From NCBI GenBank assembly GCA_000004985.1, contig GG738936.1: 64,000 nucleotides of DNA; one strand, written 5' to 3'. The stretch comes from Naegleria gruberi (Eukaryota). The position numbers and the translations under genes were made by a program. Below the pieces are notes generated by a model. That model had not been told where the DNA came from. It did not search any database and saw only the letters and a list, made by a program, of their open reading frames with translations. Of this stretch, positions 4,801 to 63,020 are shown piece by piece; position 1 is the first letter of the stretch; the number at the start of each line of letters is the position of its first letter.

Positions 4801-7800
4801 GTTAACAACAGACCAATAATACTTCAAAGGTTTTCTATCGACAGAATAGCTCAAAGATCCATCAACTGGTATAGCATCACAAGAGCTGAAGGTATCCAAA
4901 GGCGGTATTTTCAAAGCTGCCACGGGTGCAATTGTGGTCATGTTCTGAGGATAAGCAACTGTGAAAGAATTCCATGCAAAAGCTGGCACATTATCGAAAA
5001 CCAACATATTCAATTTAATGGTGGAACCTGGATAAACTGTAAAGTCAAATGAACCAAATGTTATCATAAACAAGCCACTTGTCTTGTCAACATAACTACA
5101 TGAGATATCCCGTTCCAACCCATAAAGATTATTCGCCACATCAACACTAAATAGTAACTTTGAGCATGATATTTTCACATCTGTTTTGTTTGGAGGAGAG
5201 TACATATAGAACTGCAATCCCTTAAAATCTGCAGTTATTCTCACCGTCGAACCAAAATAGGTGAGGCACTGGTCTCCATAATATCCAGGCTTGCATTGAT
5301 TACACCAATACCCAGTCCAATAACCAGCTGTGCTTGTTGAATAGCAGGAACATTTACTATTCTTACAGACACCATGACCAGAGCAATTAAGAGATGATGT
5401 ACAATTTGAGTTTACAACAATGACTGTAGTGTTAGTTGGTGAGGTGGTGTTTGTTGAGTTCGAATTGGAGGTAACATTCCAATTTGTAGTGTTAGAAACT
5501 ACAGTAGAGTTATCAATATAGGATGTGTTTCTAATAGTGCAATCCGTTCCAATTTTGCATGAACAAGTAGAGTCATAAAAACCTGTAAAGCAAGTACAGT
5601 TATTGAAACTATAACAAGTTCCATTTCCAGAACATACTGAAGATGAATTCATTGGTACAGAATAGCAAGTTGTAAACTCGCATTGGGATCCATAGTAACC
5701 ATTTGAGCAATTACAGATATTTGGTCCAATACAGGAACCTCTTGAACTACAGACGGTGTTATTCGATTGAGAAATTCCTCCACATGTGATTAGGGAGCAA
5801 TCACTTCCGATATAGCCCTGTTTACAAGCACACTTATTNNNNNNNNNNNNNNNNNNNNNNNNNNNNNNNNNNNNNNNNNNNNNNNNNNNNNNNNNNNNNN
5901 NNNAAGCTTGAGGAAATAGAGTTGTTTTCTGTACAGCTTGCTGAGATGCAAAGAGGAACATTGTTCCTGTGATTTTAGATCCTGAAACAATGTCACCATA
6001 GGGGGCCATGAGGGTTCCTTTAAAATCACCACTTATTAAAAATTGAGTAGCAATCCAAAACACTGAACTAGGAGAAGCATTACTTATCATGGTCACTTCA
6101 AAATTGTTATAATTCAAATACCCAGTCTTGAATACGACTCTCTCTGGGCCATTGATAACAACCTTACTTGGCCCTATCCAACCATTTGGAAAACAATACA
6201 CACCTCCTTGATTAATGTACAAGTTTGGAACATTTAATCCAAAGGTGTAATTGCATGGTAGTGCCGATAGCTTTTGAACCAGAGAAAGGGCTGTAGACAC
6301 AGCTTGATTTGCTTCCCAATCATTTTTGTGTAATTTGGCAGCTCCTTCCATACGATAGTAATTTGTTGGTAGAATTTCTCCCCAAATCGAAGGATGATAG
6401 TATGACGTTGGTTCAATCTTCGATCCAACGATAGCTATACTTCCACTAAGATCAATATATTTCAAGCTTTTCAAATATATTGAAGATCCACTTAATATGA
6501 TTGAATATCCAGCCAGAGGAGAAATAACTGGTCTTGTTTCAATCTCATTACAGTAAGTTCCTTTGTATCCAATCTTACAAATGCAAGTATTTGAATATTT
6601 ACAAAGTCCATTTGAGTTGCAACTTGCATTGTTTGAGTTTAGAATACCATTACATGTTGTGATAGAGCAATCCGATCCAGAGAATCCACTATCGCACGAA
6701 CAAATATTGGAGCTGCATGTACCATGACCAGAGCATACAGAACTATCTGTAGATAATACTCCATTACACATGCCCACAGAACAATCAAATCCGTAACCAT
6801 TTGGACACGAACAAGAATCGTATCCAACACAGTTTCCTATCCCTGCACAAACACTAGAGTTTCTTGATTCAATTCCATAGCAATATGTAAAGCTGCATTG
6901 AGGTTCAATAGAAAACCCTTTGTACGGATCAAAGTTATCTAATGGTGTGAACGACACATTTTTTAAAATTGGATTTACAGTTGTTGAAATGGAAAATATT
7001 GTTCCTGTAATAACAGCATTGGAAGCTGTTATTGATCTTGCTATTAAATTTCCTTTAAAATTTCCACTTATCTTGGCTGTTTTATCCACAATCCAATAGA
7101 GATTATAAGGTGATGCACATTCTGTAAATACTACTTCCACATTTTCACTCACAAAATTATCTCCAAAAATAGCAAAAATTACTCTATCTACTGTTGAAAT
7201 AACAACCTTGCTAGGTCCTTTCCAACCAGCTGTTAGCTTGTATGTTCCTCCACTTTTTACCTCCAGATAAGGTATGGAACCATCATTCAAAATAAAGTCA
7301 TAGATTGGTGTAAACCTTGATGGGTCAAATAATACCATAGCTTGTGTAACAAGGTTACTGGCAAAACTATCCTGTTCATGTATGACCAGTCCATCATTGA
7401 CATAAATACCAAATGGACTGTCTTGCCTTAATAGAGATGATGTTGTAGCAATATTTCCTGTTGTGTTAATATCCCTCTCGGTAACATAAATCCCAGCTCT
7501 AGACACTATTGAGTATCCCGCAAATAAATTCTCTATTGAGGCAGTTTCATTACAATATTGATTTACATATCCAACAAAACATGTGCACTTTTCATTCTCC
7601 GTACACATGCCTTTTGAAGAACAAACACTTGATGAATTACTATAAACTCCATCACATATTATTTCCTGAGCGAATACTCCTCCTCTAACTATTCGATATT
7701 CTTGTTCCTTACTATTATTCTGTTGTAAAATCCATATTGATGATGGCGCTGATGATTGCAGAATAATACAGCCAACTATCACATAGATCATAAAAATCCG

Positions 7801-7815
7801 TAAATCTCGCATCAT
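1897..7815 (-). CDS. very large (about 1970 aa) type-I membrane glycoprotein with tenascin/EGF-like Cys repeats, two internal homologous beta-rich modules, a C-terminal TM helix and a short basic tail
   Basis: ATG 7815 followed by a signal-peptide-like hydrophobic stretch; repeated CxxxGxCxxxxCxCxxGxxGxxC EGF/tenascin-type motifs in two blocks; the GWxGPSKVVI...ISGxFKG module occurs twice; C-terminal LLVAIFLSIVVGLCCIGLFIGLTAIFCY TM then KARQRRK; many NxS/T sites; single continuous frame across the 65-N gap. Confidence 0.75.
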   Translation of the reverse strand: MMRDLRIFMIYVIVGCIILQSSAPSSIWILQQNNSKEQEYRIVRGGVFAQEIICDGVYSNSSSVCSSKGMCTENEKCTCFVGYVNQYCNETASIENLFAGYSIVSRAGIYVTERDINTTGNIATTSSLLRQDSPFGIYVNDGLVIHEQDSFASNLVTQAMVLFDPSRFTPIYDFILNDGSIPYLEVKSGGTYKLTAGWKGPSKVVISTVDRVIFAIFGDNFVSENVEVVFTECASPYNLYWIVDKTAKISGNFKGNLIARSITASNAVITGTIFSISTTVNPILKNVSFTPLDNFDPYKGFSIEPQCSFTYCYGIESRNSSVCAGIGNCVGYDSCSCPNGYGFDCSVGMCNGVLSTDSSVCSGHGTCSSNICSCDSGFSGSDCSITTCNGILNSNNASCNSNGLCKYSNTCICKIGYKGTYCNEIETRPVISPLAGYSIILSGSSIYLKSLKYIDLSGSIAIVGSKIEPTSYYHPSIWGEILPTNYYRMEGAAKLHKNDWEANQAVSTALSLVQKLSALPCNYTFGLNVPNLYINQGGVYCFPNGWIGPSKVVINGPERVVFKTGYLNYNNFEVTMISNASPSSVFWIATQFLISGDFKGTLMAPYGDIVSGSKITGTMFLFASQQAVQKTTLFPQAXXXXXXXXXXXXXXXXXXXXXXNKCACKQGYIGSDCSLITCGGISQSNNTVCSSRGSCIGPNICNCSNGYYGSQCEFTTCYSVPMNSSSVCSGNGTCYSFNNCTCFTGFYDSTCSCKIGTDCTIRNTSYIDNSTVVSNTTNWNVTSNSNSTNTTSPTNTTVIVVNSNCTSSLNCSGHGVCKNSKCSCYSTSTAGYWTGYWCNQCKPGYYGDQCLTYFGSTVRITADFKGLQFYMYSPPNKTDVKISCSKLLFSVDVANNLYGLERDISCSYVDKTSGLFMITFGSFDFTVYPGSTIKLNMLVFDNVPAFAWNSFTVAYPQNMTTIAPVAALKIPPLDTFSSCDAIPVDGSLSYSVDRKPLKYYWSVVNASSMTDVFAVMTAQPNFMVSAELAPGSYKIKLQVYSVYLNKFSTPVYSKTFTKATKPLPSLSIFKDETIIERFTYQFPLTIRKSITTSSCQSEFDKVEVEWKKESGSAIEFKEDSYNNLVIPGVKYFEESTYIFKVSAFYSSDPSLTVSTTVRLNVLTPNITLGVLQLEAKGDHTLLKVDYSDPETLINSDIVSVWTWSCIDHSSQKLLSFLQSVSESKSTIFNVTTQLFDVVPSSIHLRLKVEKFNGKSLTKDTIINFNNIPPLVNVINIEPKSSVVVRGQLLTVQVLVSSSAISAISNSVVWTLDAIKVDKSQVSEQTLDDKRTSTVYIDTSNLVEGSEHFVSLFTYDASKGTSSESSYGFQIAVSPKPCECAVLPPYGSALDTDFNFICYNCKSEENHIDLRYGFIDDRSGLKVPLYNLGEVYSSKLPAPFEGSKLTCFFEMVDTTTGAFTTVYKDVKIEKPVVSEIEQVQNFVKLWSELSTYYSQEGEFGKSFYQSASTSRTDSVLVIDAFKHITKSSRDLSIICQNGYDLSGVCKCQDGYIGRNCDISIRDFSNIQKRKLQILNGIISIANNTVVTINDDYVGLLAFAIDSLLVNYPYLNSDTISESLTTLNTFLTYSLGIDGLKVANGVETLLLNCIKSARDYIIDRQYVVDQSSNSAKLLSALMKSSKLIARSNAVGSPLTHFNGPFYSIVLNRHTLFNFPYNIYDNSTLTSVEIEPFVDLNYVMSYISQKYFVYALSVTQDIYSLQSRLSLSHLNEDSDRESSNLISPIVSLSFSDVPVDFGGGNNIIYYNIPINKTHYEQFIVDQLDVTHVSRSFECGNFRDGSSEIRKECTLVSITEEIARCRCSKLTNVFIIETKVSSSVSYLLVAIFLSIVVGLCCIGLFIGLTAIFCYKARQRRKIHDDHIVLCENQSNSSIENSTESVSTTPREKKEKPQQTTNLIELKSNQVVPADQDLVDF
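5839..5903. other. assembly gap (65 N) inside the large CDS
   Basis: run of N; reading frame happens to be maintained across it. Confidence 1.
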
Positions 7816-17574: not shown

Positions 17575-17647
17575 GCCCGTCTAGCTCAGTCGGTAGAGCG
17601 CAAGGCTCTTAACCTTGTGGTCGTGGGTTCGACCCCCACGGTGGGCG
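17575..17647 (+). tRNA. tRNA-Lys (anticodon CUU)
   Basis: GCCCGTCTAGCTCAGTCGGTAGAGCGCAAGGCTCTTAACCTTGTGGTCGTGGGTTCGACCCCCACGGTGGGCG folds as a cloverleaf with A/B boxes (TAGCTCAGTCGG, GGTTCGA); anticodon loop CTCTTAA. Confidence 0.9.
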
Positions 17648-17659: not shown

Positions 17660-18011
17660 GTTTATTCACAAAAGGACAGATTCAACATGAAAATTAGGTT
17701 TTTATTACTTGCAATGATTTATGATGGATCTTTGTGTCAAATCAACAAAATGAAAACAATTTTAATGATAGAGAATCAGTTTTTCGTGATAGATCATTAT
17801 CCAAACTCCACATTAGTTATTATTCGTGTATCTCTCAACCTTTCATCCTTTATTTCATTCAACATTATGAGAACCTACTTTTCCTTTTTGACAACACATG
17901 ATTTGTGCAATTTCTGTTAAATTGCCGGCACTTTATTGGACTAGTAAACAATATCAAAAAAAAAACAAATACTGTTGTTATTCAAATCAAACCATTGAAT
18001 ATCATTCACAA

Positions 18012-19490
18012 ATGCTCAACATGATCGTTTCCAACTCACTCAAGACAAGTATTTGTCTTGCCATTATTCTTGTACATTATATCAGAATTGTAAAAGGTGC
18101 TAATCCTGATTGTGCTCTTATTGTTCCTCCAAATCCACTCACTCCTCAAGGATTGGCAACCCCTTATATTTTGAGAGCTGTCAATCCTGCTAATGGTCCT
18201 TGTGTCATGACAGCTGCTGATCAACAATCATTTGTTGAGGGTGTTATTTTCGTTCCAGAGACAAGATCCTTCATGATTTATAATCCTTTGGTAATTACTC
18301 AAAATACTCAACCAGCAATCAAACCAACTGTTCCTACCTTTCCAAAAACAGCAATTGTTGGTTTGTGGTTTGGTACAAATGCTGGTTCTCTTACTTTAAT
18401 TGATTCCAGTAATTCACTTGTTCAAGGTAACTGTGTAAATGGTATTGATGGAGCAAATGATATCTTTGGCCAATTCGCCTCATGCAATGGAAAACAATTT
18501 TTTGAAGCTGTCCAAACGTCAATCAGTCAAATTATTAAGGAAAATGCAACCAATAATCCTGGTTCCTTCTTTAATCCACCAGTTCCAGCACTTGGCACTG
18601 CTCTTGATGGAAAATCATGTATGACTGTCAGAGATTTTGGTATTGTTGACATGGATCAATCAGATAACGTTGTTACATCCTATATCATTAGTACAAACAA
18701 GACATTGGCAGGTAGAACTTGTCAAAATACTGCAGCTAATTTGAAAGCCCTTGGAGGAACTGCTCAAACTCAAACTTTGGTAAATGGTTCTGATAATAGA
18801 TTGTTAGCTGTTGCAATGGCACGTGCTTTAAATTGCACTCCATACATGGCCCCTGATTTGGCAAATAATGGCCAATTGACTCAGTCATTGGCATTGGATG
18901 AGATTCATGCTAAATTGAAACAAAAAGCACCGATTGCTCTTCTTCCAAAAGGAAATCCAATGGTAAGAAGCAATGATCAAGCAAACCTTGAAAAACTCAA
19001 CTTGTATAGAGCTGCTGTTTTTCAACCACAAGTTTCCAGTGTTGCATTTGCTTCCACTCGTCTCTATTGTAAACATTACGCAGTTGTGGCACCTGCCAGA
19101 ATATTCCTCGACAAGTCTATCACTTTGAAATATGCAAGTCCTGATACTGGAGTTGCCAATAATTTATTCACATTCCTAGCTCAGAGATTTGTGAATAGTT
19201 GGGAAGGATTGAAATGTGGTTGTATTCTCGATATGCCTTGTCCAATTACTATTGTTGTAGATAAGAATGGAGTAACAACAGATGCTAGTTTATCCACAAT
19301 GATGGCTAGATCTGTAAATGTTGATTCTTTGATGGATCAAATGGTTTTGGAATTTGATGGCTACATGGATGAAAACAACACATTGGATGTTAGAGCTCTT
19401 GTTAGTGAGTCAAATGGTGTTTTTACAAACAATGGTCCTGTGTATATTCTTCTTACCATTGTTGTGTCTATCATGTTCAATCTGTTGTAA
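18012..19490 (+). CDS. secreted, probably GPI-anchored surface protein, unknown family
   Basis: signal-peptide-like start MLNMIVSNSLKTSICLAIILVHYI, Cys- and Asn-rich ectodomain, C-terminal hydrophobic tail NGPVYILLTIVVSIMFNLL; track ORF starts at ATG 17898 but that stretch crosses a poly-A tract and looks like UTR. Confidence 0.55.
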   Translation: MLNMIVSNSLKTSICLAIILVHYIRIVKGANPDCALIVPPNPLTPQGLATPYILRAVNPANGPCVMTAADQQSFVEGVIFVPETRSFMIYNPLVITQNTQPAIKPTVPTFPKTAIVGLWFGTNAGSLTLIDSSNSLVQGNCVNGIDGANDIFGQFASCNGKQFFEAVQTSISQIIKENATNNPGSFFNPPVPALGTALDGKSCMTVRDFGIVDMDQSDNVVTSYIISTNKTLAGRTCQNTAANLKALGGTAQTQTLVNGSDNRLLAVAMARALNCTPYMAPDLANNGQLTQSLALDEIHAKLKQKAPIALLPKGNPMVRSNDQANLEKLNLYRAAVFQPQVSSVAFASTRLYCKHYAVVAPARIFLDKSITLKYASPDTGVANNLFTFLAQRFVNSWEGLKCGCILDMPCPITIVVDKNGVTTDASLSTMMARSVNVDSLMDQMVLEFDGYMDENNTLDVRALVSESNGVFTNNGPVYILLTIVVSIMFNLL

Positions 19491-19575
19491 ATAAAATTCT
19501 TTGAATATATTAATTAGTAAGAAATGGTTGTAAGGCCGAAATAATGATTAGTGGGACAAATATTCCTTAATATCT

Positions 19576-19648
19576 GCCCGTCTAGCTCAGTCGGTAGAGC
19601 GCAAGGCTCTTAACCTTGTGGTCGTGGGTTCGACCCCCACGGTGGGCG
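19576..19648 (+). tRNA. tRNA-Lys (anticodon CUU), second identical copy
   Basis: 73/73 nt identical to the copy at 17575-17647. Confidence 0.9.
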
Positions 19649-19655
19649 ATTCATA

Positions 19656-30593: not shown

Positions 30594-30664
30594 TCGGGCG
30601 TGGTATAGTGGTAGCATTCCAGACTGTCACTCTGGCGACCCGGGTTCAATTCCCGGCGTTCGAG
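30594..30664 (+). tRNA. tRNA-Asp (anticodon GUC)
   Basis: TCGGGCGTGGTATAGTGGTAGCATTCCAGACTGTCACTCTGGCGACCCGGGTTCAATTCCCGGCGTTCGAG; D-arm GTATAGTGG typical of tRNA-Asp; anticodon loop CTGTCAC; T-loop GGTTCAATTCC; TTTT 7 nt downstream. Confidence 0.85.
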
Positions 30665-40602: not shown

Positions 40603-40806
40603 TGTTGGAATTTTCAGTAAAGCCTTACCAGGTTTTTTGAAGATGCACACAACGCAGCCTTCACAACTTGAAAAAAAAAGCCTTTATATTGTTGCTGATA
40701 ATTTTTGTTTCCATTGGCAGTGGCACAATGTAAGGCTGAAAAATATATTGAGGGGCGATTAAGTTTCTTTTTCGGAACACTTGATTACCTAGAAATTAAC
40801 AAAAAA

Positions 40807-42999
40807 ATGAGCAAAATTAAACCTGCAGACATGTTGGAGGCATCACTACAACAAATTAAAAATGTTGTTGGTGTTGGTTCATCATCGGAGAGTGTTGGAA
40901 AGATTGTGGTGAATGTTAGCAAGATTTTGGAGGAAAATTCTGCCTATTTGGGGATTACTACATTTTACGAGAGTAACAAGTTGACATCTTCGCAGTTTGG
41001 ATCAAGTTGTAGGAATTTTCAGAAATGTTTGGATAGAGTGGAACATTTGGAATTGAGTGGAAATCAGTTGGAGTATTTTATTGTTAATGAAAAGTTGACA
41101 AGTGACTCAAAGTATTTTGTTAGCCAATTTGCAAAGAGTTTGACATTCTTGGATTTATCTAATAACATGATCAAGAATTTTCCTATTGAATGTTTGAGTA
41201 TTCCATTAAAAATATTAAATTTGGAAAATAATTTAATTACGAGTTTGGAAAATCTAGTGAAAGAGTTGAATGAGAACAAATCGGAAATGAAATTGTTGAA
41301 TTGTCTTGAGAGTTTAAATATTTCCAAAAATTTAATTCAACATTTTCCATTCTACATAATTGTTAAAAAGTTCAAAAAGGTTGATAGTATTGACCTAGGT
41401 GAAAATCCATTACAATCTCTTTCTATTAACATGTTGAAGGAACAGAAAAAGGGAATATTTGGAAGTAACGCATCATCTTCTGATAAAAACGAAGACATCA
41501 AGATATTGACTGACTATTCAGATGCTTCTATTACAAGTGTAAAGATGAACTCTATTGACCTTGAAACTATTAGAAAGAGGCTCGAGTTGAAAACTCCATT
41601 ATTATCCAACAAAACCAATTCAATTTTTAATTTATTTAAAAAGAAAATATCAGATGATATTTCATTCGATAACAGCAAGGATTTCTTCCCTGTGGAGTTA
41701 TTTGATCTTCCAAATATACAACATCTAGACCTTTCCAAAAACAAACATTTAAATTATTCCAAGATGAAACAACTTGTACTCAGTCCATCCATAACATCAC
41801 TTAATCTGTCCAATTGTCAATTAGATGAATCTGTTTCTAGAATATTCAAATCAATTTTAAACAATTCTATCAGGAAGTTGATATTACACAACAATAATAT
41901 CAAGGAAATTTTAATAGAAGATTTTCCAAATATCATTTCAATTAATTTATCCAATAATATTGAATACTACAAAAAGGATGAGAATATTTATAACATACTA
42001 TCGAATGTTAATCCAAAAATTGAAGAATTAACATTGAAACGAGTTTTTAAGAACGAAGAAGGATACAAAGACCTATTAAATCTGAGTCTTATAAGAAATA
42101 ATCTAGAAGTGCCCAAAATTGGAATTTCCTTATCCAAGTTTTCCAGTATCAGATCTTTGACACTCAGTGGATTATTTCTTTCATCAATTCCTTTAGATAT
42201 TAACCAATCAAATATGCCTAACATTGAATTTTTGGATCTTTCAGAAAATGAAATTGGAGATTTTTCTAGTAATTTGTTAATGCTCACAGAATTGAAGTCG
42301 ATAGACCTCTCATTCAATAATATTTCAACAATAGATGTAGATGATGAAATGTGCAACTTGACCAAGCTTACATCATTGGACCTTTCGCATAATAATCTCA
42401 CAGAATTTCCAATTGATCTAGTTCTATTATTACCCTCTATAGATATTCTTTCTCTTGAGTACAATACTAGTAATTTGAAAACAGCAAGAGAAGACAAGAA
42501 TGATATATTCAACCAATGGATGAAGGATCATAGTTCTGTGAAAATTAAACGAATGCTCATTGAACCAAGTTTAATTCTTGAGAGATTATATCTGGGAGGA
42601 AATGGTTCTGCCCAAAGTAAACACAATATGAAATTACTGGGCATTACTCACGTATTGAATGTTGCTGAGGGTTTAATAGCTCCATATCCTTTCGATTTCA
42701 AATATAAGAAAGTTGAACTTTCTGATACGTTAGGCGAGGATTTACTTCCGCACATAGATGCTTGTGTAAAATTTATAGAAGAGGCCATTGATTCACAAGG
42801 AACCATTCTTGTGCATTGCAAGGCAGGAGTAAGTCGTTCTGCCTCAATGGTAATTGCTTATGTAATGAAGAAATTCAAACTCTCTTTAGATGAAGCAACT
42901 CAAATGGTAAAGGAGAAGCGTTCACAGATTTGTCCTAATGGAGCATTTGTAAAACAATTGGAAGATTATGGACGTTTATTGAATCGTGAATCACATTAG
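40807..42999 (+). CDS. leucine-rich-repeat protein with C-terminal dual-specificity protein phosphatase domain
   Basis: about 15 LRRs (LxxLxLSxNxI), then DSP catalytic loop VHCKAGVSRSASMVIAYVMK and the general-acid region; first ATG at 40807 (track starts at TTG 40705). Confidence 0.8.
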   Translation: MSKIKPADMLEASLQQIKNVVGVGSSSESVGKIVVNVSKILEENSAYLGITTFYESNKLTSSQFGSSCRNFQKCLDRVEHLELSGNQLEYFIVNEKLTSDSKYFVSQFAKSLTFLDLSNNMIKNFPIECLSIPLKILNLENNLITSLENLVKELNENKSEMKLLNCLESLNISKNLIQHFPFYIIVKKFKKVDSIDLGENPLQSLSINMLKEQKKGIFGSNASSSDKNEDIKILTDYSDASITSVKMNSIDLETIRKRLELKTPLLSNKTNSIFNLFKKKISDDISFDNSKDFFPVELFDLPNIQHLDLSKNKHLNYSKMKQLVLSPSITSLNLSNCQLDESVSRIFKSILNNSIRKLILHNNNIKEILIEDFPNIISINLSNNIEYYKKDENIYNILSNVNPKIEELTLKRVFKNEEGYKDLLNLSLIRNNLEVPKIGISLSKFSSIRSLTLSGLFLSSIPLDINQSNMPNIEFLDLSENEIGDFSSNLLMLTELKSIDLSFNNISTIDVDDEMCNLTKLTSLDLSHNNLTEFPIDLVLLLPSIDILSLEYNTSNLKTAREDKNDIFNQWMKDHSSVKIKRMLIEPSLILERLYLGGNGSAQSKHNMKLLGITHVLNVAEGLIAPYPFDFKYKKVELSDTLGEDLLPHIDACVKFIEEAIDSQGTILVHCKAGVSRSASMVIAYVMKKFKLSLDEATQMVKEKRSQICPNGAFVKQLEDYGRLLNRESH

Positions 43000-47658: not shown

Positions 47659-50600
47659 TTAATTTAGAATGAGATTATCATTGGAAGGGGTTGAATTTTT
47701 ACAATTCGTTTCAATCTTGATTGGATCATCAACAGATTTGTGTGCTGATATTTTGTTCTTTGAAATGGTCAATCTATCACATTCGTCACCATAAATAGCA
47801 AAACTACCATTGGCAGATATTTCATTATCAATAATATCAGCTTCAAATTGTCTAACTTTGACTCCCATATTAGAATTGTTAATAATCTTATTTTCCTTGA
47901 TGGTTGCATATGCTTTTTGAACAATAATACCATCACTATTCTCGGTTATTTCATTCTTTTCAATGATTGGATTTGATTGTTCAACAACAATTATGCCCTG
48001 TTTAGCACATCCAAATATTCTATTGCCTACAATTGAAGGTGTTGCACCTTGTCTTATTTCAATACCAGAATAGACATTGGAAAGAATTTCATTTCCTTGG
48101 AAAATGAGAGTATTATCAATATCCTTTCCCTTAATTGAAACACCACTCTGACGATTGGAGTATATTTGATTGTTTCTAATGGTTGGATTAGAGTTTCTGA
48201 GTTCAAGACCAGCATAGGCGTTTTCATAAATTCTATTCTTTTCAACAGTTCCTCTACTCTTGGTAGCAATCAAAATACCACAAATACCTCCCTTGTAAAT
48301 TTCATTCTCAATGATATCTATATTACATTCATTTGATACTTCGATACCAGCCATGGTATTATCAAATATTTGATTATGCATGAGAGTGGCTTTACATTGG
48401 GCATTCACAACAATACCTGCTGCTTTTTGGCCCATAATAACATTCTTGGTTATTTTCACATCTTTACATTCCTTGAAGAGTTGAATACCTGAACTTTCAT
48501 TTCTGATAATTTCATTTTCTTGAACTGTTCCTGTAGATTGAATCATTAGCAGAGATTTCTTCTTTGAACCAGTGATGAGATTGTTAGTAATCTTGAGTTG
48601 AGATTTTTCAGCAACAATAGCATTTTCGTTCATAACAAATTTGCTGTTATGAATAAAAGCTTGAGAAGATCTAATTTCACAAGCAATACCTTCAGATTCT
48701 CTGAATTCAGAATTGACAATTTTGAGACTGGAATTTCTGGTTGCTATTGTGGAAAATCGGCTGAATTTACAATTCCTAATTTCACATTCAGCTCCATCAT
48801 CAAGTCTGATATGTAAGCCTTGTGATTTTGGATTTCCTCCATTTTGTTGAGGTGTAACAACAACATCAGCACTTTTTGCTTCCTTTGTTGCCTTGAAGAA
48901 AATATTCTCGAATATAATGTTAGAGCCAGCCTCTAACATGATACTACCAGCTTCTCCAAGTGTAATGATTGGATAAAGTATGTGAGCTTGTTTTTCCGAT
49001 TCTTCTCCAATGATATGTATCAGCTTATGGTTCATTTTGGTATTAATTCTAATTTTTTCATTACTATAAAGACCCATTCGCACTTGAATGGTAATCTTTT
49101 GTTTGAATGAATTGGAATTGTCAGAGTTTGATATTGGAACTGGTGTTTGTTTCATATTGACAATATGGTTGAGGGCTTCTGTAATGGAGCTGAAATCTCC
49201 CTTTCCTGTATAGTCAACTACAAATATATTGTCCATAGAGGTCTTTTGTTCAACAACAATTTCTTGTTCACTCTCATTCGATTCAATCATTGGAGTTGAT
49301 TCATCACTTGGTGGTTTTGAGGCAGTATTTGAGGCAACAGTTACATATCTTGGATGCTTACGAATAGACTTCAAAGGGCCATAAGGAGTTTCATCTCCAT
49401 TCAAGAAAACTTCAGCGAATGATTTCAAACATTTCCAATATTGGGCATGTTGAATAATTACTTGTCTGATAGCAACATTGGTGGCCTTTGATGGTGGTTT
49501 GATAGAAATTGGAGATGGAGGCAAGTTCAATAAACTTCTCAGAGAAGCAGTTGCACATGATGCTGTTACATCTGTCTTATATCCACCTTCGAGAGCTAAA
49601 ACAATTTTACCACCTGCCAATTGTTTTAACATACCAATAATATGTTCATATCCACTTGGTGTTAAGGACATTCTTCTTCCCAAAATATCACCCTTGGCAG
49701 CATCAAAACCAGCTGACACAATGACCAAGTCAGGTGCAAACTCTGTACAAACAGGAATAATCAATTGTCTGAAAATGGCAATATAATCAGAATCACCAAA
49801 GGTAGCAGTGGATGGTATCTTATAGTCTTTTGGAGGGAGAGGTATGTTCAATGTGTAACCTTCACCCTTTCCGATACCAACTTCTTCTAATGAACCAGTT
49901 CCAGGGAAATAATTTTGCTCGAATCTGTGAATGGAAACATAGAGAATAGATGGATCATCCTCAAAAATTTCCTGTGTACCATTACCGTGGTGAATGTCAA
50001 AGTCAATGATGGCTACTCTACCAACAGATTTGAATTGTTGAGCTACACGAGCTGCTACAGCAGCATTGTTAAAGAAACAGAATCCCATTGGATCTTCTGT
50101 TTGAGCATGGTGACCAGGTGGACGTACAATAGCCATTCCGTTTTCCAATTCTCCATTCAATACCTTCTCAGTTAGTTTAATTACACCACCTGCTGCTAAT
50201 CTTGCTGCTTTAAGACTGAATTGATTAATTTGGATATCATGCTCGTTATCTTGCACGATACCTCTCAATAAATTATGGTTTGAAGTTGTAGGATTGAATT
50301 GTCCTTTAAATTCAAAGAAATCATCAATATATTTTTCTGTATGGACCAGAGCAAGTTCTTGTTGTGTCACTTCTCTTGACTTCATAATTTCACATTCATC
50401 CAACAAGTTGTGTTCTTGAATCATATTCCAAATATGACTAATACGAACTGGTGTTTCTGGTATTGGACCATCATGAAGACACATTCTAGCATCATATAAT
50501 AATCCTGTTTTCTTTGGTTGATATTTTTCATTGAGGGATTGATTTTGAGTTGATAATTCAATAGGCCCCAACACTATGGAAGATTTTTCAGTGGTTAAAT

Positions 50601-51775
50601 TATTCAATTTGTCAGAGTCAATGATTGTTATCAAGTGCTTGTTCTTTTCCACAAATTCTAAAGTATTTTGTCTTCCGTTCAAGAATGAGTCCATGTCTAC
50701 AATCTTTTCATCTTCGTTTTGTGCAGTTGGATTATTTTCAACCAGTAAAACTTTTGAATTATTTTTTCCAATTACAACTCTATCACAATATGTTTTCAAT
50801 TGATCAGATGAATCCAAATTCACAAAAATATTCTTTTTGGTGTTGGATGCAATTATAGACTCTAGAGATCCATCATTATCCTCTAATTTTCTCTTTTTCG
50901 ATGAAGAATCTAATGAGTTCGAGCCTTCTGGATCTGAAGATTTCTTTGAATTATTTTCCTCAACGAATGGGTATGGAGCTAATTTCCAATCTCTGGCACA
51001 ATCATATAACCAATTCTTATCTACACGCTTAATTCCCCATTTGATCGATGTATCATATTTGGCACCAGCTGCAACTTTGTAAAGTAAATGAGTATTTTCC
51101 TGTGTCATATTACTGGAATATTTGCTTCCCATTGCTGCTATTAAATATTGCAATCTTGTTTTTTCTTTCTTTGGAAAACCAGATAAGGTAAAGTTCTGAA
51201 AAAGGAATGTAAAAAATATTAGTGCTATTGAATTATACTTACAAATCCTTCCATATCTGTAATTGGATAATCTTTCACGGGATAGTGGAGTGGATTTTGA
51301 ATTTTCCTTCCAAATTTCTCAGTAATTACTAGAGGTTGAACACCATGAACAAGCATACAATCATCGAGCCAAAAACTAGTTACAATCGTTTTCTTTTCTT
51401 CGAGTGCCTTTGAAAATAAGCCACTAAACGTGTCACAATCTCAACTACTTACTCTATAGAAATTTTCTCCTCTCTGAACACTTGCCATCAAGTGTGTAAT
51501 ATTACTCTTATACATGGTCACAACTTGTCCACCAAGTTTTTTGATAATTTCCCTGTAGAGTTCGGCCTCAGCTTCCTCATGTGTAAGTGGATCCACAAAG
51601 AATGTGCACCCTTCGAGAAATTCTGGCACATCTTCCATGTTTAGACCTGCAGCTGCGATTGGATTGGTAGTTCTGGTTTGTGGACGTTGTCTTCCTATCA
51701 TAATAATTAATGATCCAAGAAATAAGACCAACTTGCCAATGACATTAAAACAACTTACTTGACATTTTCGGGGAA
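47659..51775 (-). CDS. tandem-BRCT + class-II histone deacetylase + C-terminal PbH1/CASH parallel-beta-helix protein (about 1316 aa); exons 51775-51769, 51694-51453, 51407-51243, 51195-47659
   Basis: BRCT-like blocks (CTFFVDPLTHEEAEAELYREIIKKLGGQVV...; TSFWLDDCMLVHGVQP; IKWGIKRVDKNWLYDCARDWKLAPYPF); HDAC motifs RPPGHHAQ, GFCFFNNAAVAARVAQ, IIDFDIHHGNGTQEIF, ALEGGY; C-terminal about 450 aa of 22-23-aa PbH1-type repeats (NxIxxNxxxGIxV); exons joined by GTAAGT donors with frame continuity, first coding exon only 7 nt. Confidence 0.7.
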
Positions 51776-52151: not shown

Positions 52152-53234
52152 TTACAGCTCATCACAAAACCATGAATCATCTAACATGATTGGTTCTTGT
52201 TTTCTTGGTTTTACCAGTTGTGATGCCTTGTCATCTAGAATATTTTGAAGGAATTTTTGTGAGGTTGATTTGGTTTTGGATGGTTTTTCAATTTTTGGAA
52301 TTTTAACATGTGGCCGTATCTCTAATTTTTCAATTAATTCTGGCTCATATACTTGTTTTCTCTCTAAAGTATCTAAGTGAAGCTTAATTTCATCAATTTT
52401 ATGCTCGCAATCTTGTACACATTTTGTTATGGATTGAGATGATTCAAAGCTAGCTTTCTTGACATCTGCAAAATTCGAAGAAATGTCATGAGTCATCTCC
52501 ACAACTATTGATGATAATATTGAAAATGATATTATTCTAATGTACTTACTCTTATCACTTAACATTGAATATTGTTCCTCTATCATGAATTGATGTTTTT
52601 CCAATACGGATTCTATACTGTCCATCTTTTTCATCAAATTTATCATCACACTAGAAAGCTCTTCTTGCATTTCGTTCTGCTTTTGTTGGACTGATGCCAC
52701 TTTTTCTTCTAAGTTTTGAAATTTGAGTGTAAACCATTCCTTGTCAATTGTTGACGAAAGAGAAAGGCTTGATTTGGACTTTATCAAGAAGTTATCAAGA
52801 TTATTTTGATGAGGAACACCAGTGGCATTTTGTGATGATTGTTTGTTTGAGTCAGTGGAAGGAGGTATCGGAGCGAAGGGAATGTTATTAGAAGAACCTG
52901 AAGGATTCGTCATTGAGATGAAGAATGATGATGGAGAAAGTACATCTTTTTGTGATCCGGATTGGGATGATTGCTTTTGTTTCCCTCCACTGAAAATATC
53001 CATTAATTGAGCAACATTCCTCTTACTATCAGATTAATGTATCAAATAGATGAATAATATTATTCTAATGTAAACTAACCTTCCGTTACTAGGTGATGAA
53101 GATAATAGCCTATTACTGTACAATGTATTATTACTTTGAGAGGGTCTTAATGCTAACAAATTTGTAGCCTGAGAATTGAATGATCCTTGAGTTTGAGAAG
53201 AAAAATATTGTTCTAGTGGTGATTGTTGAGACAT
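52152..53234 (-). CDS. Ser/Gln-rich coiled-coil protein, unknown function; exons 53234-53080, 53025-52550, 52504-52152
   Basis: two GT-AG introns restore a single frame; the 45-nt second intron is in frame and stop-free, so the track reads through it; central heptad-repeat region. Confidence 0.5.
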
Positions 53235-53552: not shown

Positions 53553-56465
53553 ATGTCATCATTACCAACATCCATTGTTGCCTCTTCTCATCATGGAATA
53601 ATTACTAATAGTAATCATTTGCAAGGCAAAAAAGCAACCACAAATTTATCTTGTTTAACTACAAGTCTATTGTTGGATAGAACCCACAATCATCACCAAC
53701 ATGAAGAACAACAAATAATAATCGGAAGTAGTAGTACAGACAATGGTAGTGATGATAGGATATTAGAGAGTAATTGTAGTAATAATTATATAGTAGGAAA
53801 AGAAGAGGATGAAATTAAAGTGGAAACATCAACTTTAGATAATCATTGTTCTACAACAAAGGGAGAAAAAACACCAGTATCTCCTGCTAATGAAACAGAA
53901 GAACAGAATGTTGACAATACTCTCGAATCACTTTGTATTGAATACTTGATGAAGAATATCGAAAACTTTTCAAAGCCTCCTTCGAGTGTGGTCGATAATA
54001 ATTATTATGAATTTCTTGAAAAGGTTGAAGCTAAACTTGGCAATCAACAAGCACCACCACAAACTAATGGTTCTTCTGCAGCTTCCTATAAGCATTTATT
54101 AAAACAAAGAGCAAGAAGTTCTTCAATTGGAAAAGTTGGTGGTGGAGGTGGAAATATTACAAATTATTTGCCAGCAACATTTGTGATGAGTCAACAAGCA
54201 TCGGAAGAGGTTTATCCATTTCCACAAGCTGTTTCTCAATTAATTGTGAATGGATTGTGTACCTCTAAACAAATTAGTCTTCCACTTTTAATCAAGTTGA
54301 GATATTCTGGGTTATCGAATTTGAATTTATCTTTGAATGGACGTGTTCATGATGATTGGATGATGTTATTGAGAGAAATACCTTTGGAAACTTTAAATTT
54401 ATCACATTGTTTAATCACTAATCAAAGTTTATATTATGTGAAAGGAAAGAAACATATTATACCATGCCCAGAAAATGAGACGAATAATGAAAGGGGTTCT
54501 CCTACACTTCCTGAAGAGTCTGAATCTGAATCTGAAAGTGATTCTGAAGAAACACAAAAGAAGAGTGTTACTTTTTCTTTTGATTCAAATCCAAACAGAA
54601 AACCTCCTAAAAAGAAAAAGAAAAAGATAGTAGGGACTAGTTCTGTCTCCACGCCTCACAAGAGAGTACCTTCTGCTGATAGTAATGGTTCAGATAAGGA
54701 TAACGATAAGAAAAAGAAGAGTGGACCAAAGAGTACAACTTCTAGTGGTTCTGGTGGAAGTGGCTCATCTTCTAAAAAGAGAAAAGATGGTTCCATTCAA
54801 GTCACCACACCTTATACTCTTTCCCGAACACTCAAGTCATTGAATATGTCAAATATTCATGAAATTACGCATGATTCATTCAAGTTGATTCCTCAACTAT
54901 TCCCAAATCTTACAGCTTTGTCATTTGAGGGATGTAGTAACTTTACTAACAAATGCTTGGAACATATTTGCGGAAAAGTTCACAAATCTGAGGGAACCGT
55001 TCAAGAAAGTTCCAGTGTCAAACAATTGAGAAGAAACCTTAAAAAACTCAATTTGAAAAAGACGAAAATATCTGATGCTGGTGTCAGAAATTTACAAAGT
55101 CTAATCAACTTGGAATATTTAAATTTATCCGAGAATAAGCAATTGACGAACCATTGCCTAAAATTCTTGAAAGATTTAAAGTTTCTTTCATTCATAGCCA
55201 TTGATGGCAATGAAAGAATGACAGAGGATGGGTTGAGCTATTATCTCGGAGATGGAATAACCGGAATTTCAATTTCTGGAACATATATGGGTGATAACCC
55301 AGAACATTTTGCAAATTTTCCAAAGCTTAACTATTGGAATGCTTCAAATACCAATATTCACTCTCTGCAGAACAATGTTAAAAATTCATTTGCCTTCAAT
55401 AATCTCAGTGTGCTTAATCTATCTCACTGCAAGCTACTGGATGATAATTCTATGAAGAAATTTTTTGAAAGTTTGAATTGCCTATGCGAGGTGAATATTT
55501 CGAGCACTTTCCTTGATGATGAAGCTGTTAGTGGTCTATTGTCTTCAAAGAGTACTCTTAAAATTTTACATATCAACAACTGTGTACATATAACTGATCT
55601 TACCTTCGAGCATATTCTTCCATCCTTCAATATCATTACCGAGCTAGGTTTAAGGCAGATGAAGCACATCACTTATGCCAATGGATGGTGTCATTTATTC
55701 TCTGCTGACTTGCCAAAGGTAGAAAAACTATATTTGACTGCTAGTTTTATTAACCAAAGGTCTGATCAAGTGGAGCAAGAAGGATTTAAGGAAGCATTTG
55801 CAAATATTTGCAAAAATTTGAAAATATTGGATTTAAGTTGTAATTTGAAAGGAATAGATGATGAAAATATTTCAGAGGCTATCTCTGCAATGACCAATTT
55901 GGAGTGGATAGATTTTTCGCATTGTGATAGAATTTCCTCAAAAACTGTTGAAAATATTGCCAAACACTGTTTTAGACACTTGACTCACTTTGCTATTAGT
56001 TATTGCAAGAAGGTAGATGGAGCAAGTATTCCACTATTAAGGTCCTGCAAAAGCCTTGAAGTATTGTACCTATCAGGTATCAATATTCTTCCACAACAGT
56101 TTGCCAAACTTGCTACTTTGGAGAATATTTCTGACTTGAGTGTGATGGATTGTAAAAAGTTGGAGCAAAGGGATGGTTGTACCGAATTCTTGTACATACT
56201 AAGCAACCAATGTAAATTCAAAAACAAATTACTCATGCTAAATTTGTATGGCCTTTACATTTATGAAGATTCTTTGGGATTTTTAGTTAGTTTGGATAAT
56301 TTAGTCACACTAAGATTGTCAACTCATGAAGAGCTTGAGGACCTGGGAGCTTTGTACGATCTACACAATCTGGTCTATTTGAAAACCAATGTTCTACAAT
56401 CCAAATCTCTTCAACAAGATTACAAAGCCTCCAAAGGATTCAACAGAGAAGTTTTCTCAATTTAA
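53553..56465 (+). CDS. LRR protein of the cysteine-containing (FBXL-like) LRR type with Ser/Glu-rich and polybasic N-terminal region
   Basis: C-terminal about 550 aa of repeated LxxLxLxxCxxITD-type LRRs; KKKKKK and SESESESDSEE low-complexity region. Confidence 0.65.
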   Translation: MSSLPTSIVASSHHGIITNSNHLQGKKATTNLSCLTTSLLLDRTHNHHQHEEQQIIIGSSSTDNGSDDRILESNCSNNYIVGKEEDEIKVETSTLDNHCSTTKGEKTPVSPANETEEQNVDNTLESLCIEYLMKNIENFSKPPSSVVDNNYYEFLEKVEAKLGNQQAPPQTNGSSAASYKHLLKQRARSSSIGKVGGGGGNITNYLPATFVMSQQASEEVYPFPQAVSQLIVNGLCTSKQISLPLLIKLRYSGLSNLNLSLNGRVHDDWMMLLREIPLETLNLSHCLITNQSLYYVKGKKHIIPCPENETNNERGSPTLPEESESESESDSEETQKKSVTFSFDSNPNRKPPKKKKKKIVGTSSVSTPHKRVPSADSNGSDKDNDKKKKSGPKSTTSSGSGGSGSSSKKRKDGSIQVTTPYTLSRTLKSLNMSNIHEITHDSFKLIPQLFPNLTALSFEGCSNFTNKCLEHICGKVHKSEGTVQESSSVKQLRRNLKKLNLKKTKISDAGVRNLQSLINLEYLNLSENKQLTNHCLKFLKDLKFLSFIAIDGNERMTEDGLSYYLGDGITGISISGTYMGDNPEHFANFPKLNYWNASNTNIHSLQNNVKNSFAFNNLSVLNLSHCKLLDDNSMKKFFESLNCLCEVNISSTFLDDEAVSGLLSSKSTLKILHINNCVHITDLTFEHILPSFNIITELGLRQMKHITYANGWCHLFSADLPKVEKLYLTASFINQRSDQVEQEGFKEAFANICKNLKILDLSCNLKGIDDENISEAISAMTNLEWIDFSHCDRISSKTVENIAKHCFRHLTHFAISYCKKVDGASIPLLRSCKSLEVLYLSGINILPQQFAKLATLENISDLSVMDCKKLEQRDGCTEFLYILSNQCKFKNKLLMLNLYGLYIYEDSLGFLVSLDNLVTLRLSTHEELEDLGALYDLHNLVYLKTNVLQSKSLQQDYKASKGFNREVFSI

Positions 56466-60836: not shown

Positions 60837-63020
60837 TTATAAAAATTCTTGGGCAAACTTTAAAAAAAACAATGGCAAAAGTTTTGGAGGTAATTTTAAA
60901 ATTGTCTCACAATCAGGAAAGAGTTGTCTTCTGTGCTTAATTCCAAATGTAATCAATTCATTATAAAAACCCTCAAAACATTGCAAACCAATATAATTTT
61001 CACAAGCTGAAACAATATCTATATAATTATCAATGGAAATTGATAATTCATTCTTACAATATTTAACTAAATATTCCATTTCATGTTTCATGGCCATATC
61101 AAGAAGACGAAGCAACTTTTCGTATTTAACATCTTGAACTGGAGTTTCATAACATGTCTTGATGATAATTTCCAAAAATTCAAAATCATCTGAAGAATCT
61201 GGAATAAAAATATCATTACTGAGATCGGTAAATGTTGATCCACTGTCAAACATGGCATTAAATAATGTACTTGAAGAGCTTAAAATTGTTTTGTGGCAAT
61301 ACAAGTAATTATCTTCATCAATTTGAATTTTCAAATCACTCGTTTTCTTATCGTTATATAATTTACCAATATCCATCAATTCTATTTCTACTGCTTCATC
61401 AATAATTATATAATTTGGTTGGGACAGTGAGTGTTTTGACAAGATGTTAGCAGCATTTTTCACAATGATTGGAAGATTTGGCAAACTATTGACTCCTCCT
61501 GGAGTTTTCATTTGAATGGCAGCAAATTCAACACAATAATTATTCAAATATTCAAGAATATAATTTTCTAAATGAAAATCACTACATTGAGAAAGATAAA
61601 TTTCAATTTGTTCCCATTTAAATGAAAGATTTTGAATAGTAAGTGATTGAATAAATTGAGTTGTGCATAATTTTTTCAATTGAATAAATTCATTATTCTT
61701 GAAAAATCCTAAAATGAATAAAACATCCAATATTTCATCATTGTTAAATTTCAATTGAATTTCATTATTATAAATTAAAGAGTCAATTAATTTTTGAATA
61801 ATTTCTTGTTGAATTGAATTCATTGATGAAATTAGTGATTCATTCTTTAAAATATATTTACAAAATAGTGGTGATACCATTTCAACGAGAGGAATGAATG
61901 CATAAATTGATGAATTAAACAATAAATCTCTTGAATGTTTTTTCAACTTGGCTTTGCCATACGTGGAAGAATATATAGGGCCAATGTGTGGATATTTTGA
62001 AAAATCAAATACTGAATCACCATCATATCCTAATTCTCCATTTCCAGCTATTGTTATAATATTTCCATTTTCCAATATTTTTCTAATTCTGTTATTTTGA
62101 TAATCAGCAATATAAACTTCATTATCTTGGGAAACAAAAACACCTACTGGACTATACAATTTTGCATTTACTGCAAGACCATTATCACCACCATATCCTA
62201 ATTTTCCATTTCCTGCTATCGTTATAATGTTTCCATTTTCCAATATTTTTCTAATTCTGGTATTTTGGTAATCAGCAATATAAACTTCATTCTTTGATGA
62301 AACAAAAACATCTACTGGACTAGACAACTTTGCATTTACTGCAGGACCATTATCACCACTATATCCTTGTTGTCCATTTCCAGCTATTGTTATAATATTT
62401 CCGTTTCTTAATATTTTTCTAATTCTGTGATTACCAGTATCAGCAATATAAACTTCATCATTTGGCGTAACAAAAACGCTTGATGGATCAAAGAGTGGTG
62501 CATTTACTGCAGGACCATTATCACCATTATATCCTTGTTGTCCATTTCCTGCTATTGTTACAATATTTCCATTTTCCAATATTTTTCTAATTGAGTGATT
62601 ACCAGAATCAGCAATATAAACTTCATTCTTTAGTGAAACACAAACACTCGATGGACTAGCCAGTTGTGCATTTACTGCAAGACCATTATCACCATTATAT
62701 CCTTGTTGTCCATTTCCTGCTATTGTTATAATGTTTCCATTTTCCAATATTTTTCTAATTCTGTTATTTTGATAATCAGCAATATAAACTTCATTCTTTG
62801 ATGAAACAAAAACATATGATGGACTAACAAGTTGTGCATTTACTGCAAGACCATTATCACCACTATATCCTTGTTGTCCATTTCCTGCTATTGTTACAAT
62901 ATTTCCATTTTCCAATATCTTTCTAACTGTGTGATTACCAGTATCAGCAATATAAACTTCATCATTACTTGATGAAACAAAAATACTCCTAGGATTAAAC
63001 AATTGTGCATTTGTTGCCAT
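60837..63020 (-). CDS. NHL-repeat beta-propeller protein with C-terminal BTB/BACK-like domain
   Basis: six tandem repeats of about 57 aa (EVYIADxxNxRIRKILENGNIITIAGNGQQGYxGDNGLAVNAQLxSP) = NHL; C-terminal DLKIQIDEDNYLYCHKTILSSSSTLFNAMF = BTB core followed by a BACK-like helical region. Confidence 0.7.
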   Translation of the reverse strand: MATNAQLFNPRSIFVSSSNDEVYIADTGNHTVRKILENGNIVTIAGNGQQGYSGDNGLAVNAQLVSPSYVFVSSKNEVYIADYQNNRIRKILENGNIITIAGNGQQGYNGDNGLAVNAQLASPSSVCVSLKNEVYIADSGNHSIRKILENGNIVTIAGNGQQGYNGDNGPAVNAPLFDPSSVFVTPNDEVYIADTGNHRIRKILRNGNIITIAGNGQQGYSGDNGPAVNAKLSSPVDVFVSSKNEVYIADYQNTRIRKILENGNIITIAGNGKLGYGGDNGLAVNAKLYSPVGVFVSQDNEVYIADYQNNRIRKILENGNIITIAGNGELGYDGDSVFDFSKYPHIGPIYSSTYGKAKLKKHSRDLLFNSSIYAFIPLVEMVSPLFCKYILKNESLISSMNSIQQEIIQKLIDSLIYNNEIQLKFNNDEILDVLFILGFFKNNEFIQLKKLCTTQFIQSLTIQNLSFKWEQIEIYLSQCSDFHLENYILEYLNNYCVEFAAIQMKTPGGVNSLPNLPIIVKNAANILSKHSLSQPNYIIIDEAVEIELMDIGKLYNDKKTSDLKIQIDEDNYLYCHKTILSSSSTLFNAMFDSGSTFTDLSNDIFIPDSSDDFEFLEIIIKTCYETPVQDVKYEKLLRLLDMAMKHEMEYLVKYCKNELSISIDNYIDIVSACENYIGLQCFEGFYNELITFGIKHRRQLFPDCETILKLPPKLLPLFFLKFAQEFL
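62030..63000 (-). repeat. tandem about-171-nt repeats (near-identical at DNA level) encoding the NHL blades
   Basis: strings such as ccattatcaccattatatccttgttgtccatttcctgctattgtta(c/t)aat(a/g)tttccattttccaatat recur with about 171-nt period. Confidence 0.6.

Follow-up and report, generated by a model that had tools for sequence, protein, structure and literature searches.

Introduction

HDAC6 is a tubulin deacetylase, and a true HDAC6 carries two Hist_deacetyl stretches together with a ZnF-UBP domain (PF02148). Polyamine deacetylases of the HDAC10 type are marked by a glutamate gatekeeper, which follows the third zinc ligand at a distance of seven residues. In animals and yeast, phosphorylation is linked to deacetylation by separate adaptor and enzyme proteins. 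In BRCT domains, phosphate is contacted by a triad that consists of a Ser/Thr at the end of strand β1, an Arg/Lys seven residues on and a Lys in helix α2 (PMC3017600 Table 2). BRCT5 of TopBP1 holds such a triad (Ser654/Lys661/Lys704) and binds a phosphopeptide, and its N-terminal neighbour BRCT4 is without one (PMC3017600). FBXO11 is a nuclear protein that recognises its substrates through CASH domains, which are right-handed beta-helices (PMC8825234). Here, we describe a gene of Naegleria gruberi, located in a 64,000-nucleotide (nt) stretch of contig GG738936.1 (the window), in which two BRCT domains, a class II histone deacetylase (HDAC) domain and a long right-handed parallel beta-helix are joined in one polypeptide.

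Three modules are encoded by one gene

The locus is one real N. gruberi gene. Four minus-strand exons (Table 1) were spliced in silico into a coding sequence of 3951 nt (51765..47659) that ends with TAA and encodes 1316 amino acids (aa), the length given in an initial annotation of the window. There, the product had been described as a BRCT pair followed by a complete class II HDAC and a PbH1-type beta-helix, and profile searches of the flanking regions had been proposed as a check. All three modules were called by Pfam, with scores so far above the curated cut-offs that chance is excluded. Hist_deacetyl (PF00850) scored 315.8 bits (cut-off 27.9) over profile positions 2-297 of 298 (296 covered). 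In the N-terminal flank, BRCT was called at aa 26-101 with 76.7 bits (cut-off 21.3; family E 1.6e-21) and PTCB-BRCT at aa 141-200 with 68.9 bits (cut-off 22; E 3.8e-19). In the C-terminal flank, Beta_helix was called in six stretches with 239.2 bits (cut-off 25.9; E 1.9e-71) and NosD with 101.6 bits (cut-off 23.6; E 5.3e-29).

On balance, and with modest confidence, we favour a reading in which the protein would act in the nucleus as a class II lysine deacetylase that is tethered to phosphoproteins, and in which the beta-helix would be a receptor for substrates or partners.

Orthologues with the same fusion, which had been named as a further check, were found in several genomes. The protein of N. 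lovaniensis (1327 aa, 58% identity) has the three-part architecture, and a third Naegleria-like genome holds the last exon intact in two assemblies. In Acrasis kona, the orthologue is 1362 aa long (37% identity), and a single exon again covers its HDAC domain and beta-helix. Two divergent metagenomic proteins, P0009 and P0076, share the three-part architecture. In P0009, both BRCTs, the HDAC domain and the beta-helix are encoded by a single intron-free open reading frame (ORF) of 1297 aa on its contig, which is independent proof against a gene-model chimera.

Gene model and translation start

The window is AT-rich (~33% GC), and its introns are short with GT..AG borders. The uninterrupted core of the gene is an open frame of 1164 codons (47659..51153, minus strand), and the exon that contains it reaches upstream to 51195. 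This exon holds BRCT2, the HDAC domain and the beta-helix together, so that this part of the fusion is independent of splice prediction. All three introns have a GTAAGT donor and an AG acceptor. Their positions are common to N. gruberi and N. lovaniensis, and the orthologue alignment is free of gaps at the intron 2 junction.

An artefactual gene model, in which BRCT1 or both BRCTs stem from a separate upstream transcript, was weighed at this point. BRCT1 is joined to the rest through predicted introns only, and the eukaryotic orthologue models are predictions as well. However, BRCT2 shares exon and reading frame with the two downstream modules, and the 47-nt GT..AG intron between BRCT1 and BRCT2 leaves no room for a terminator or a promoter. 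The junctions are moreover gap-free across four species, the intron positions are conserved, and P0009 dispenses with introns altogether. We regard this explanation as essentially excluded.

The junctions 51453/51407 and 51243/51195 had been placed correctly in the initial annotation. Its first exon (51775..51769, with the donor at 51769) had been set 10 nt too high, where a literal reading gives 'FPG...'; the exon lies at 51765..51759, the donor follows 51759 and the whole feature spans 47659..51765. It had further been expected that, owing to the 7-nt first exon, the BRCT exons would likely escape automated annotation. This did not hold, as the gene model is identical over its full length (100% identity, 100% length, 1316 aa) to the public entry XP_002668933.1 / EFC36189.1 / UniProt D2W428 ('histone deacetylase [Naegleria gruberi]'), which begins with MSRR and hence already uses the 7-nt exon.

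The 7-nt exon is not the sole viable start. An in-frame ATG within intron 1 (51699..51701, minus strand) opens an alternative model that begins with MIGRQRP..., is also 1316 aa long and differs from the MSRR form in residues 2-3 only; the BRCT exons can be reached via this ATG at 51701. The N. lovaniensis orthologue begins with ATGTCAA too, and its first intron has the same position and phase. This conservation favours the spliced start as the probable one. In N. lovaniensis, intron 1 holds an in-frame TGA, which makes splicing obligatory there.

The catalytic domain is of class II

The motifs quoted in the initial annotation are present at aa 496-501 (RPPGHH), 510-515 (FCFFNN), 536-544 (DFDIHHGNG) and 674-677 (EGGY). 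The tandem histidines H500/H501, the zinc ligands D538/H540/D636 and the catalytic Y677 are invariant in six aligned sequences. Every active-site residue needed is present, and the protein is predicted to be an active lysine deacetylase.

In searches against the PDB, the top match was catalytic domain 2 (CD2) of zebrafish HDAC6, which aligned over the whole domain with 278.7 bits. HDAC4 followed with 273.9 bits, HDAC6 catalytic domain 1 (CD1) and plant HDA15 with 257 each, Clr3 with 249, Hda1 with 240 and HDAC10 with ~230. Class II enzymes including HDAC7 reached 240-279 bits versus 117 for the class I enzyme Clr6, which places the domain closer to class II. Features in common with HDAC6 CD2 are the tandem histidines, the Asp/His/Asp zinc ligands, the tyrosine of EGGY, a leucine gatekeeper and, in ...NQFSLKAA..., the Ser/Thr position that contacts the substrate. 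The gatekeeper L643, seven residues past D636, is invariant and aligns with the leucine in ...GDPLGG... of HDAC6 CD2. Unlike HDAC6, the Naegleria protein has a BRCT pair and a beta-helix; Pfam called one Hist_deacetyl stretch and found no PF02148 match in it. With one catalytic domain and no ZnF-UBP, it is not an HDAC6 orthologue, and it is best classed as a class II enzyme that is nearest to HDAC6 CD2 by a small margin.

This proximity could be taken to mean that the protein is a cytoplasmic or cytoskeletal deacetylase of the HDAC6 type, acting for instance on tubulin during the switch from amoeba to flagellate, with the beta-helix replacing ZnF-UBP as a cargo module and the BRCTs serving general interactions. 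Besides the score of CD2, the leucine gatekeeper and the catalytic tyrosine, it is in line with such a role that the top non-heterolobosean matches in two large searches were all HDAC6. However, the margin over HDAC4 and HDA15 is small, which indicates a generic class II domain. The single catalytic domain and the missing ZnF-UBP also speak against it, and the TopBP1-type BRCT pocket and the basic patch KKRKLE (see below) point to the nucleus. We consider an HDAC6-type function unlikely.

BRCT2 holds a phosphate-binding triad

For aa 1-225, an AlphaFold2 (AF2) model was examined. It shows two BRCT folds with the topology β1-α1-β2-β3-α2-β4-α3 at predicted local distance difference test (pLDDT) values of 70-90. 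The two are separated by a linker of ~33 aa, in which aa 105-129 have pLDDT values below 50 and are predicted to be disordered. By sequence, the nearest solved BRCTs are BRCT1,2 of Schizosaccharomyces pombe Rad4 (E 5e-9) and BRCT0-2 of TopBP1, at identities of 17-22%. Foldseek ranked Rad4 BRCT1,2 first (E 6.5e-12), followed by TopBP1 BRCT0-2 and 4/5 and then by Rtt107.

In the alignment with Rad4 BRCT2, residues S143, K150 and K184 fall on T110, R117 and K151. The triad is kept in Naegleria and in Acrasis, where the serine is replaced by threonine. BRCT1 has none (Table 1). The pocket is thus confined to the C-terminal BRCT, as in TopBP1 BRCT4/5, and the Ser/Lys/Lys composition and the +7 spacing are the same as in TopBP1 BRCT5. 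The predicted layout resembles TopBP1 BRCT4/5 more than a tandem of the BRCA1 type. Of the tandem BRCT that had been annotated, the two BRCT domains stand; a BRCA1-type tandem is not supported, with a triad in BRCT2 only and a predicted template modelling score (pTM) of 0.47 for the two-domain model. In contrast to TopBP1 and Rad4, which are multi-BRCT scaffolds, there are only two BRCTs here, and they are joined to an enzyme.

The beta-helix is related to those of ubiquitin ligases

The AF2 model of aa 785-1316 is a right-handed parallel beta-helix built of regular three-strand coils (mean pLDDT 85, pTM 0.85). The structure prediction that had been recommended as a check thus recovered the beta-helix and both BRCT folds, with a poorly defined packing of the BRCTs against each other. 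All of the top 50 Foldseek matches listed from the PDB are beta-helix proteins. Repeat analysis gave a coil period of 22-23 aa, and every other coil carries G[IVL]E[IVL]. The annotated fold is correct; the length had been put at ~450 aa and is about 500 aa, with AF2 strands from ~aa 794 to 1300.

For the search for relatives, a profile was built from six orthologous beta-helices; a search with the single sequence was uninformative, giving one weak match and missing its own orthologues. Among the matches of the profile search, two U-box proteins, P0212 (299 bits) and P0213 (282 bits), are the closest relatives of the HDAC's beta-helix; an F-box-like/zf-UBR protein of Physarum (P0220) scored 90 bits. 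With hhalign, P0212 was matched at 99.85% over 484 columns and the FBXO11-like Physarum protein at 98.4%, at ~28% identity. All three relatives share the 22-23-aa coil and likewise have G[IVL]E[IVL] in alternate coils. The PbH1 repeat type is thus common to the Naegleria protein, to FBXO11-type proteins (F-box/CASH/zf-UBR) and to the U-box/beta-helix proteins, whereas the Naegleria beta-helix is joined to a deacetylase and not to a ubiquitin ligase. A domain search for F-box, U-box and zf-UBR gave no match in the protein, which sets it apart from FBXO11 proper. The label 'FBXO11-like CASH' given in the initial annotation is supported at the family level, and it would point to recognition of proteins rather than glycans.

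P0212 and P0213 represent a metagenomic family in which a U-box is joined to a long FBXO11-type beta-helix. Their sequences are GC-rich, unlike those of Naegleria.

A glycan-binding surface had been suggested as well, for which the beta-helix shows no specific support. In its full form, this idea has the protein deacetylate non-protein substrates, be it polyamines as in HDAC10 or glycans that are N-acetylated, and treats the beta-helix as a true CASH module for carbohydrate binding or processing. The Foldseek neighbours, among them alginate epimerases, PL6 lyases, GH87 glucanases and phage tailspikes, agree with it, and the only PDB sequence match of the beta-helix was the alginate epimerase AlgG, a weak one (E 1.2e-4). 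On the other side, identity to the polysaccharide enzymes is 14% or less, and these structural neighbours amount to generic fold similarity. The nearest relatives by sequence are linked to E3 ligases and not to glycoside enzymes. HDAC10 scored below HDAC6 and HDAC4, and leucine takes the place of the HDAC10-type glutamate at position 643. A signal peptide or secretory context is lacking, and the BRCTs and the motif resembling a nuclear localisation signal argue for the nucleus. Taken together, a non-protein substrate appears quite improbable. A catalytic role like that of AlgG was rejected, as the DPHD motif of AlgG faces 'LEL' and an insertion and is not conserved (overall identity 12-14%).

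The linker between BRCT2 and the HDAC domain

No Pfam or PDB match was obtained for the linker between BRCT2 and the HDAC domain (aa 216-372), which is conserved within Naegleria only. It holds the basic patch KKRKLE, a candidate monopartite nuclear localisation signal in a disordered part of the chain. The patch is kept in the orthologues as KKRKTEEE, KRAKLD and RKRSSQEE.

One part of the linker (aa ~259-335, NIFVNLDSSDQLKTYCDRVV...HLITIIDSD, in the region 50119..50898, aa 238-372) is well conserved in Naegleria and partly alignable in Acrasis. It may form a small uncharacterised folded element.

Proposed function

According to the reading that we favour, the KKRKLE patch would take the protein into the nucleus. 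There, the pocket of BRCT2 would dock the enzyme on a phosphoserine or phosphothreonine motif of a partner that has been phosphorylated by a cell-cycle or checkpoint kinase, with the pocketless BRCT1 as a structural partner, as is the case for TopBP1 BRCT4 or BRCT0. The HDAC domain, with its intact set of catalytic residues, would deacetylate lysines in histones or in other proteins of chromatin at the docking site. The ~500-aa beta-helix may offer a long surface for binding proteins, by which the substrate would be selected or a partner anchored, as its homology to ligase-linked beta-helices suggests. In this way, one chain would read phosphorylation, erase acetylation and receive substrates, and phosphorylation during replication or DNA damage could be converted into local deacetylation. 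Localisation, phosphopeptide binding, activity, substrates and the role of the beta-helix are what we infer from sequence, and the reading is a proposal of this kind for every member of the family.

Several observations weigh against this proposal. The closest catalytic relative, HDAC6, is mainly cytoplasmic, and the nuclear localisation signal is assigned from a short basic motif. The orientation of BRCT1 relative to BRCT2 is poorly defined, with Foldseek TM-scores of 0.3-0.4 in addition to the low pTM. P0009 keeps the architecture but is without the BRCT2 triad, so that phospho-binding does not extend to the whole family. Within the PDB, the beta-helix has its structural neighbours among polysaccharide enzymes and phage tail proteins. 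PbH1 repeats also match each other easily, which inflates scores, and the ranking of U-box and FBXO11-type proteins is suggestive and not proof of a common function.

A more specific version, which we rate as rather doubtful, is that the beta-helix could be a degron-type receptor in common with the U-box and F-box ligases, and that deacetylation, gated by the binding of BRCT2 to a phosphorylated partner, would be directed at the very lysines or substrates that are ubiquitinated by those ligases. If so, the protein would be a hard-wired phospho-acetyl-ubiquitin switch at sites of replication or damage and would represent a new class of substrate-directed nuclear deacetylase.

Should the nuclear, phosphoprotein-docked mechanism be correct, phosphorylation signalling would be tied directly to lysine deacetylation within a single chain, and the FBXO11-type beta-helix would be a portable substrate receptor beyond ubiquitin ligases.

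Distribution and published work

For an exhaustive HMMER scan, the product of exon 4 was used as query against 1.84 billion cluster representatives. Thousands of HDACs were retrieved (2856 at E up to 1e-30); the BRCT and beta-helix segments were matched only in the Naegleria cluster and in P0076. Acrasis was absent among the representatives listed, and the scan library is not perfectly complete. The architecture seems to be restricted to Heterolobosea and to uncultured organisms close to them. Within Naegleria it was seen in N. gruberi, N. lovaniensis and the third Naegleria-like genome, which may represent a further species. P0063 (852 bits, 2025 aa) had been considered as a second cluster with the full architecture. 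It was rejected, being an HDAC6 of the metazoan type with four catalytic copies and a ZnF-UBP, without BRCT or beta-helix.

Other class II HDACs of protists likewise join one catalytic domain to targeting modules, and such lineage-specific fusions are frequent among them. The fusions met in the homology search comprise ankyrin/Myb (Triparma, Thalassiosira, Amoebophrya), SET (Chlamydomonas), IPK (Plasmodium), NACHT, a GNAT acetyltransferase and PHD, but none of them pairs BRCT with a beta-helix.

The initial annotation had known of no described HDAC with such an architecture, and in full-text literature no paper was found that describes it or cites the accessions; a mention in an older survey of protist chromatin proteins is possible. 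A 2017 survey names BRCT as one of the accessory domains that occur with HDA/SRT deacetylases of non-photosynthetic eukaryotes, and gives no more detail (PMC5499015). Public databases already contain the gene and its Pfam domains, and the architecture is unusual, conserved and mechanistically suggestive, but it is no new category. In a 2026 study, pan-HDAC inhibitors killed trophozoites of N. fowleri (PMC13470574); domains were not catalogued there. Given this killing, a lineage-specific class II HDAC with an architecture that has no human counterpart may be of relevance.

Coordinates and neighbouring genes

Table 1. Coordinates of the deacetylase gene, its domains and residues, and of other features in the window.
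Feature	Position	Strand	Residues	Remarks
Exon 1	51759..51765	-	Met1, Ser2, first base of Arg3	ATGTCAA; GTAAGT donor next
Intron 1	51695..51758	-		64 nt, GTAAGT..TAG
Exon 2	51453..51694	-	aa 3-83	N-terminal RRQRPQTRTT (basic, conserved), then the bulk of BRCT1
Intron 2	51408..51452	-		45 nt, GTAAGT..AAG; site kept in N. lovaniensis (FK|ALE)
Exon 3	51243..51407	-	aa 84-138	end of BRCT1 and inter-BRCT linker
Intron 3	51196..51242	-		47 nt, GTAAGT..CAG; site kept in N. lovaniensis (SF|NFA)
Exon 4	47659..51195	-	aa 139-1316 and TAA	BRCT2, linker, HDAC, beta-helix; unbroken frame
BRCT1	51354..51626	-	aa 26-101	spans intron 2; Pfam BRCT; without phosphate triad (D37, A44, N80 region)
BRCT2	50989..51195	-	aa 139-207	Pfam PTCB-BRCT
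BRCT2 triad, Ser	51183..51181	-	S143	from Rad4 BRCT2 alignment
BRCT2 triad, first Lys	51162..51160	-	K150	from Rad4 BRCT2 alignment
BRCT2 triad, second Lys	51060..51058	-	K184	from Rad4 BRCT2 alignment
KKRKLE	50881..50898	-	aa 238-243	disordered linker; candidate monopartite nuclear localisation signal, motif only
Class II HDAC domain	49534..50460	-	aa 384-692	Pfam Hist_deacetyl, E 3.7e-94
Tandem His	50112..50107	-	H500/H501	codons
Zinc ligand	49998	-	D538	codon
Zinc ligand	49992	-	H540	codon
Zinc ligand	49704	-	D636	codon
Gatekeeper	49683	-	L643	codon
Catalytic Tyr	49581..49579	-	Y677	codon
Right-handed parallel beta-helix	47710..49230	-	~aa 794-1300	roughly 17-19 coils
Upstream gene	52152..53003	-	283 aa	Ser/Gln-rich N-terminus; no Pfam match
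Leucine-rich repeat (LRR) gene	53553..56465	+		divergent; beyond the 283-aa gene
tRNA-Lys(CTT), first copy	17575..17647	+		
ORF between tRNA-Lys copies	17898..19490		530 aa	
tRNA-Lys(CTT), second copy	19575..19649	+		
tRNA-Asp(GTC)	30594..30664	+		one copy
LRR and phosphatase ORF	40705..42999	+		C-terminal dual-specificity phosphatase domain (DSPc, E 1.4e-34)
NHL and BTB/POZ ORF	60837..63020	-		NHL repeats first, then BTB/POZ
Largest ORF of the window	1897..7815	-	1972 aa	

The genes that flank the deacetylase are unrelated to it and comprise a weakly Erf4-like ORF, an unknown ORF resembling a coiled coil, an LRR protein, an LRR protein with a dual-specificity phosphatase domain, an Exo_endo_phos protein and an NHL-BTB protein. 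Upstream, synteny is conserved, as the order LRR, unknown, HDAC recurs in the same orientation in N. lovaniensis. Downstream it is not: the Erf4-like ORF is found here versus a HisKA/response-regulator gene in N. lovaniensis, and the third Naegleria-like genome has the same HisKA neighbour as N. lovaniensis.

Elsewhere in the window, the two tRNA-Lys(CTT) genes are 2 kb from each other, with an ORF between them (Table 1), and a tRNA-Asp(GTC) gene was also located. In the LRR-phosphatase ORF, leucine-rich repeats precede the catalytic domain. The ORF with NHL repeats (a beta-propeller) and BTB/POZ encodes a putative Cullin-3 substrate adaptor. The largest ORF of the window, on the minus strand, is 1972 aa long.

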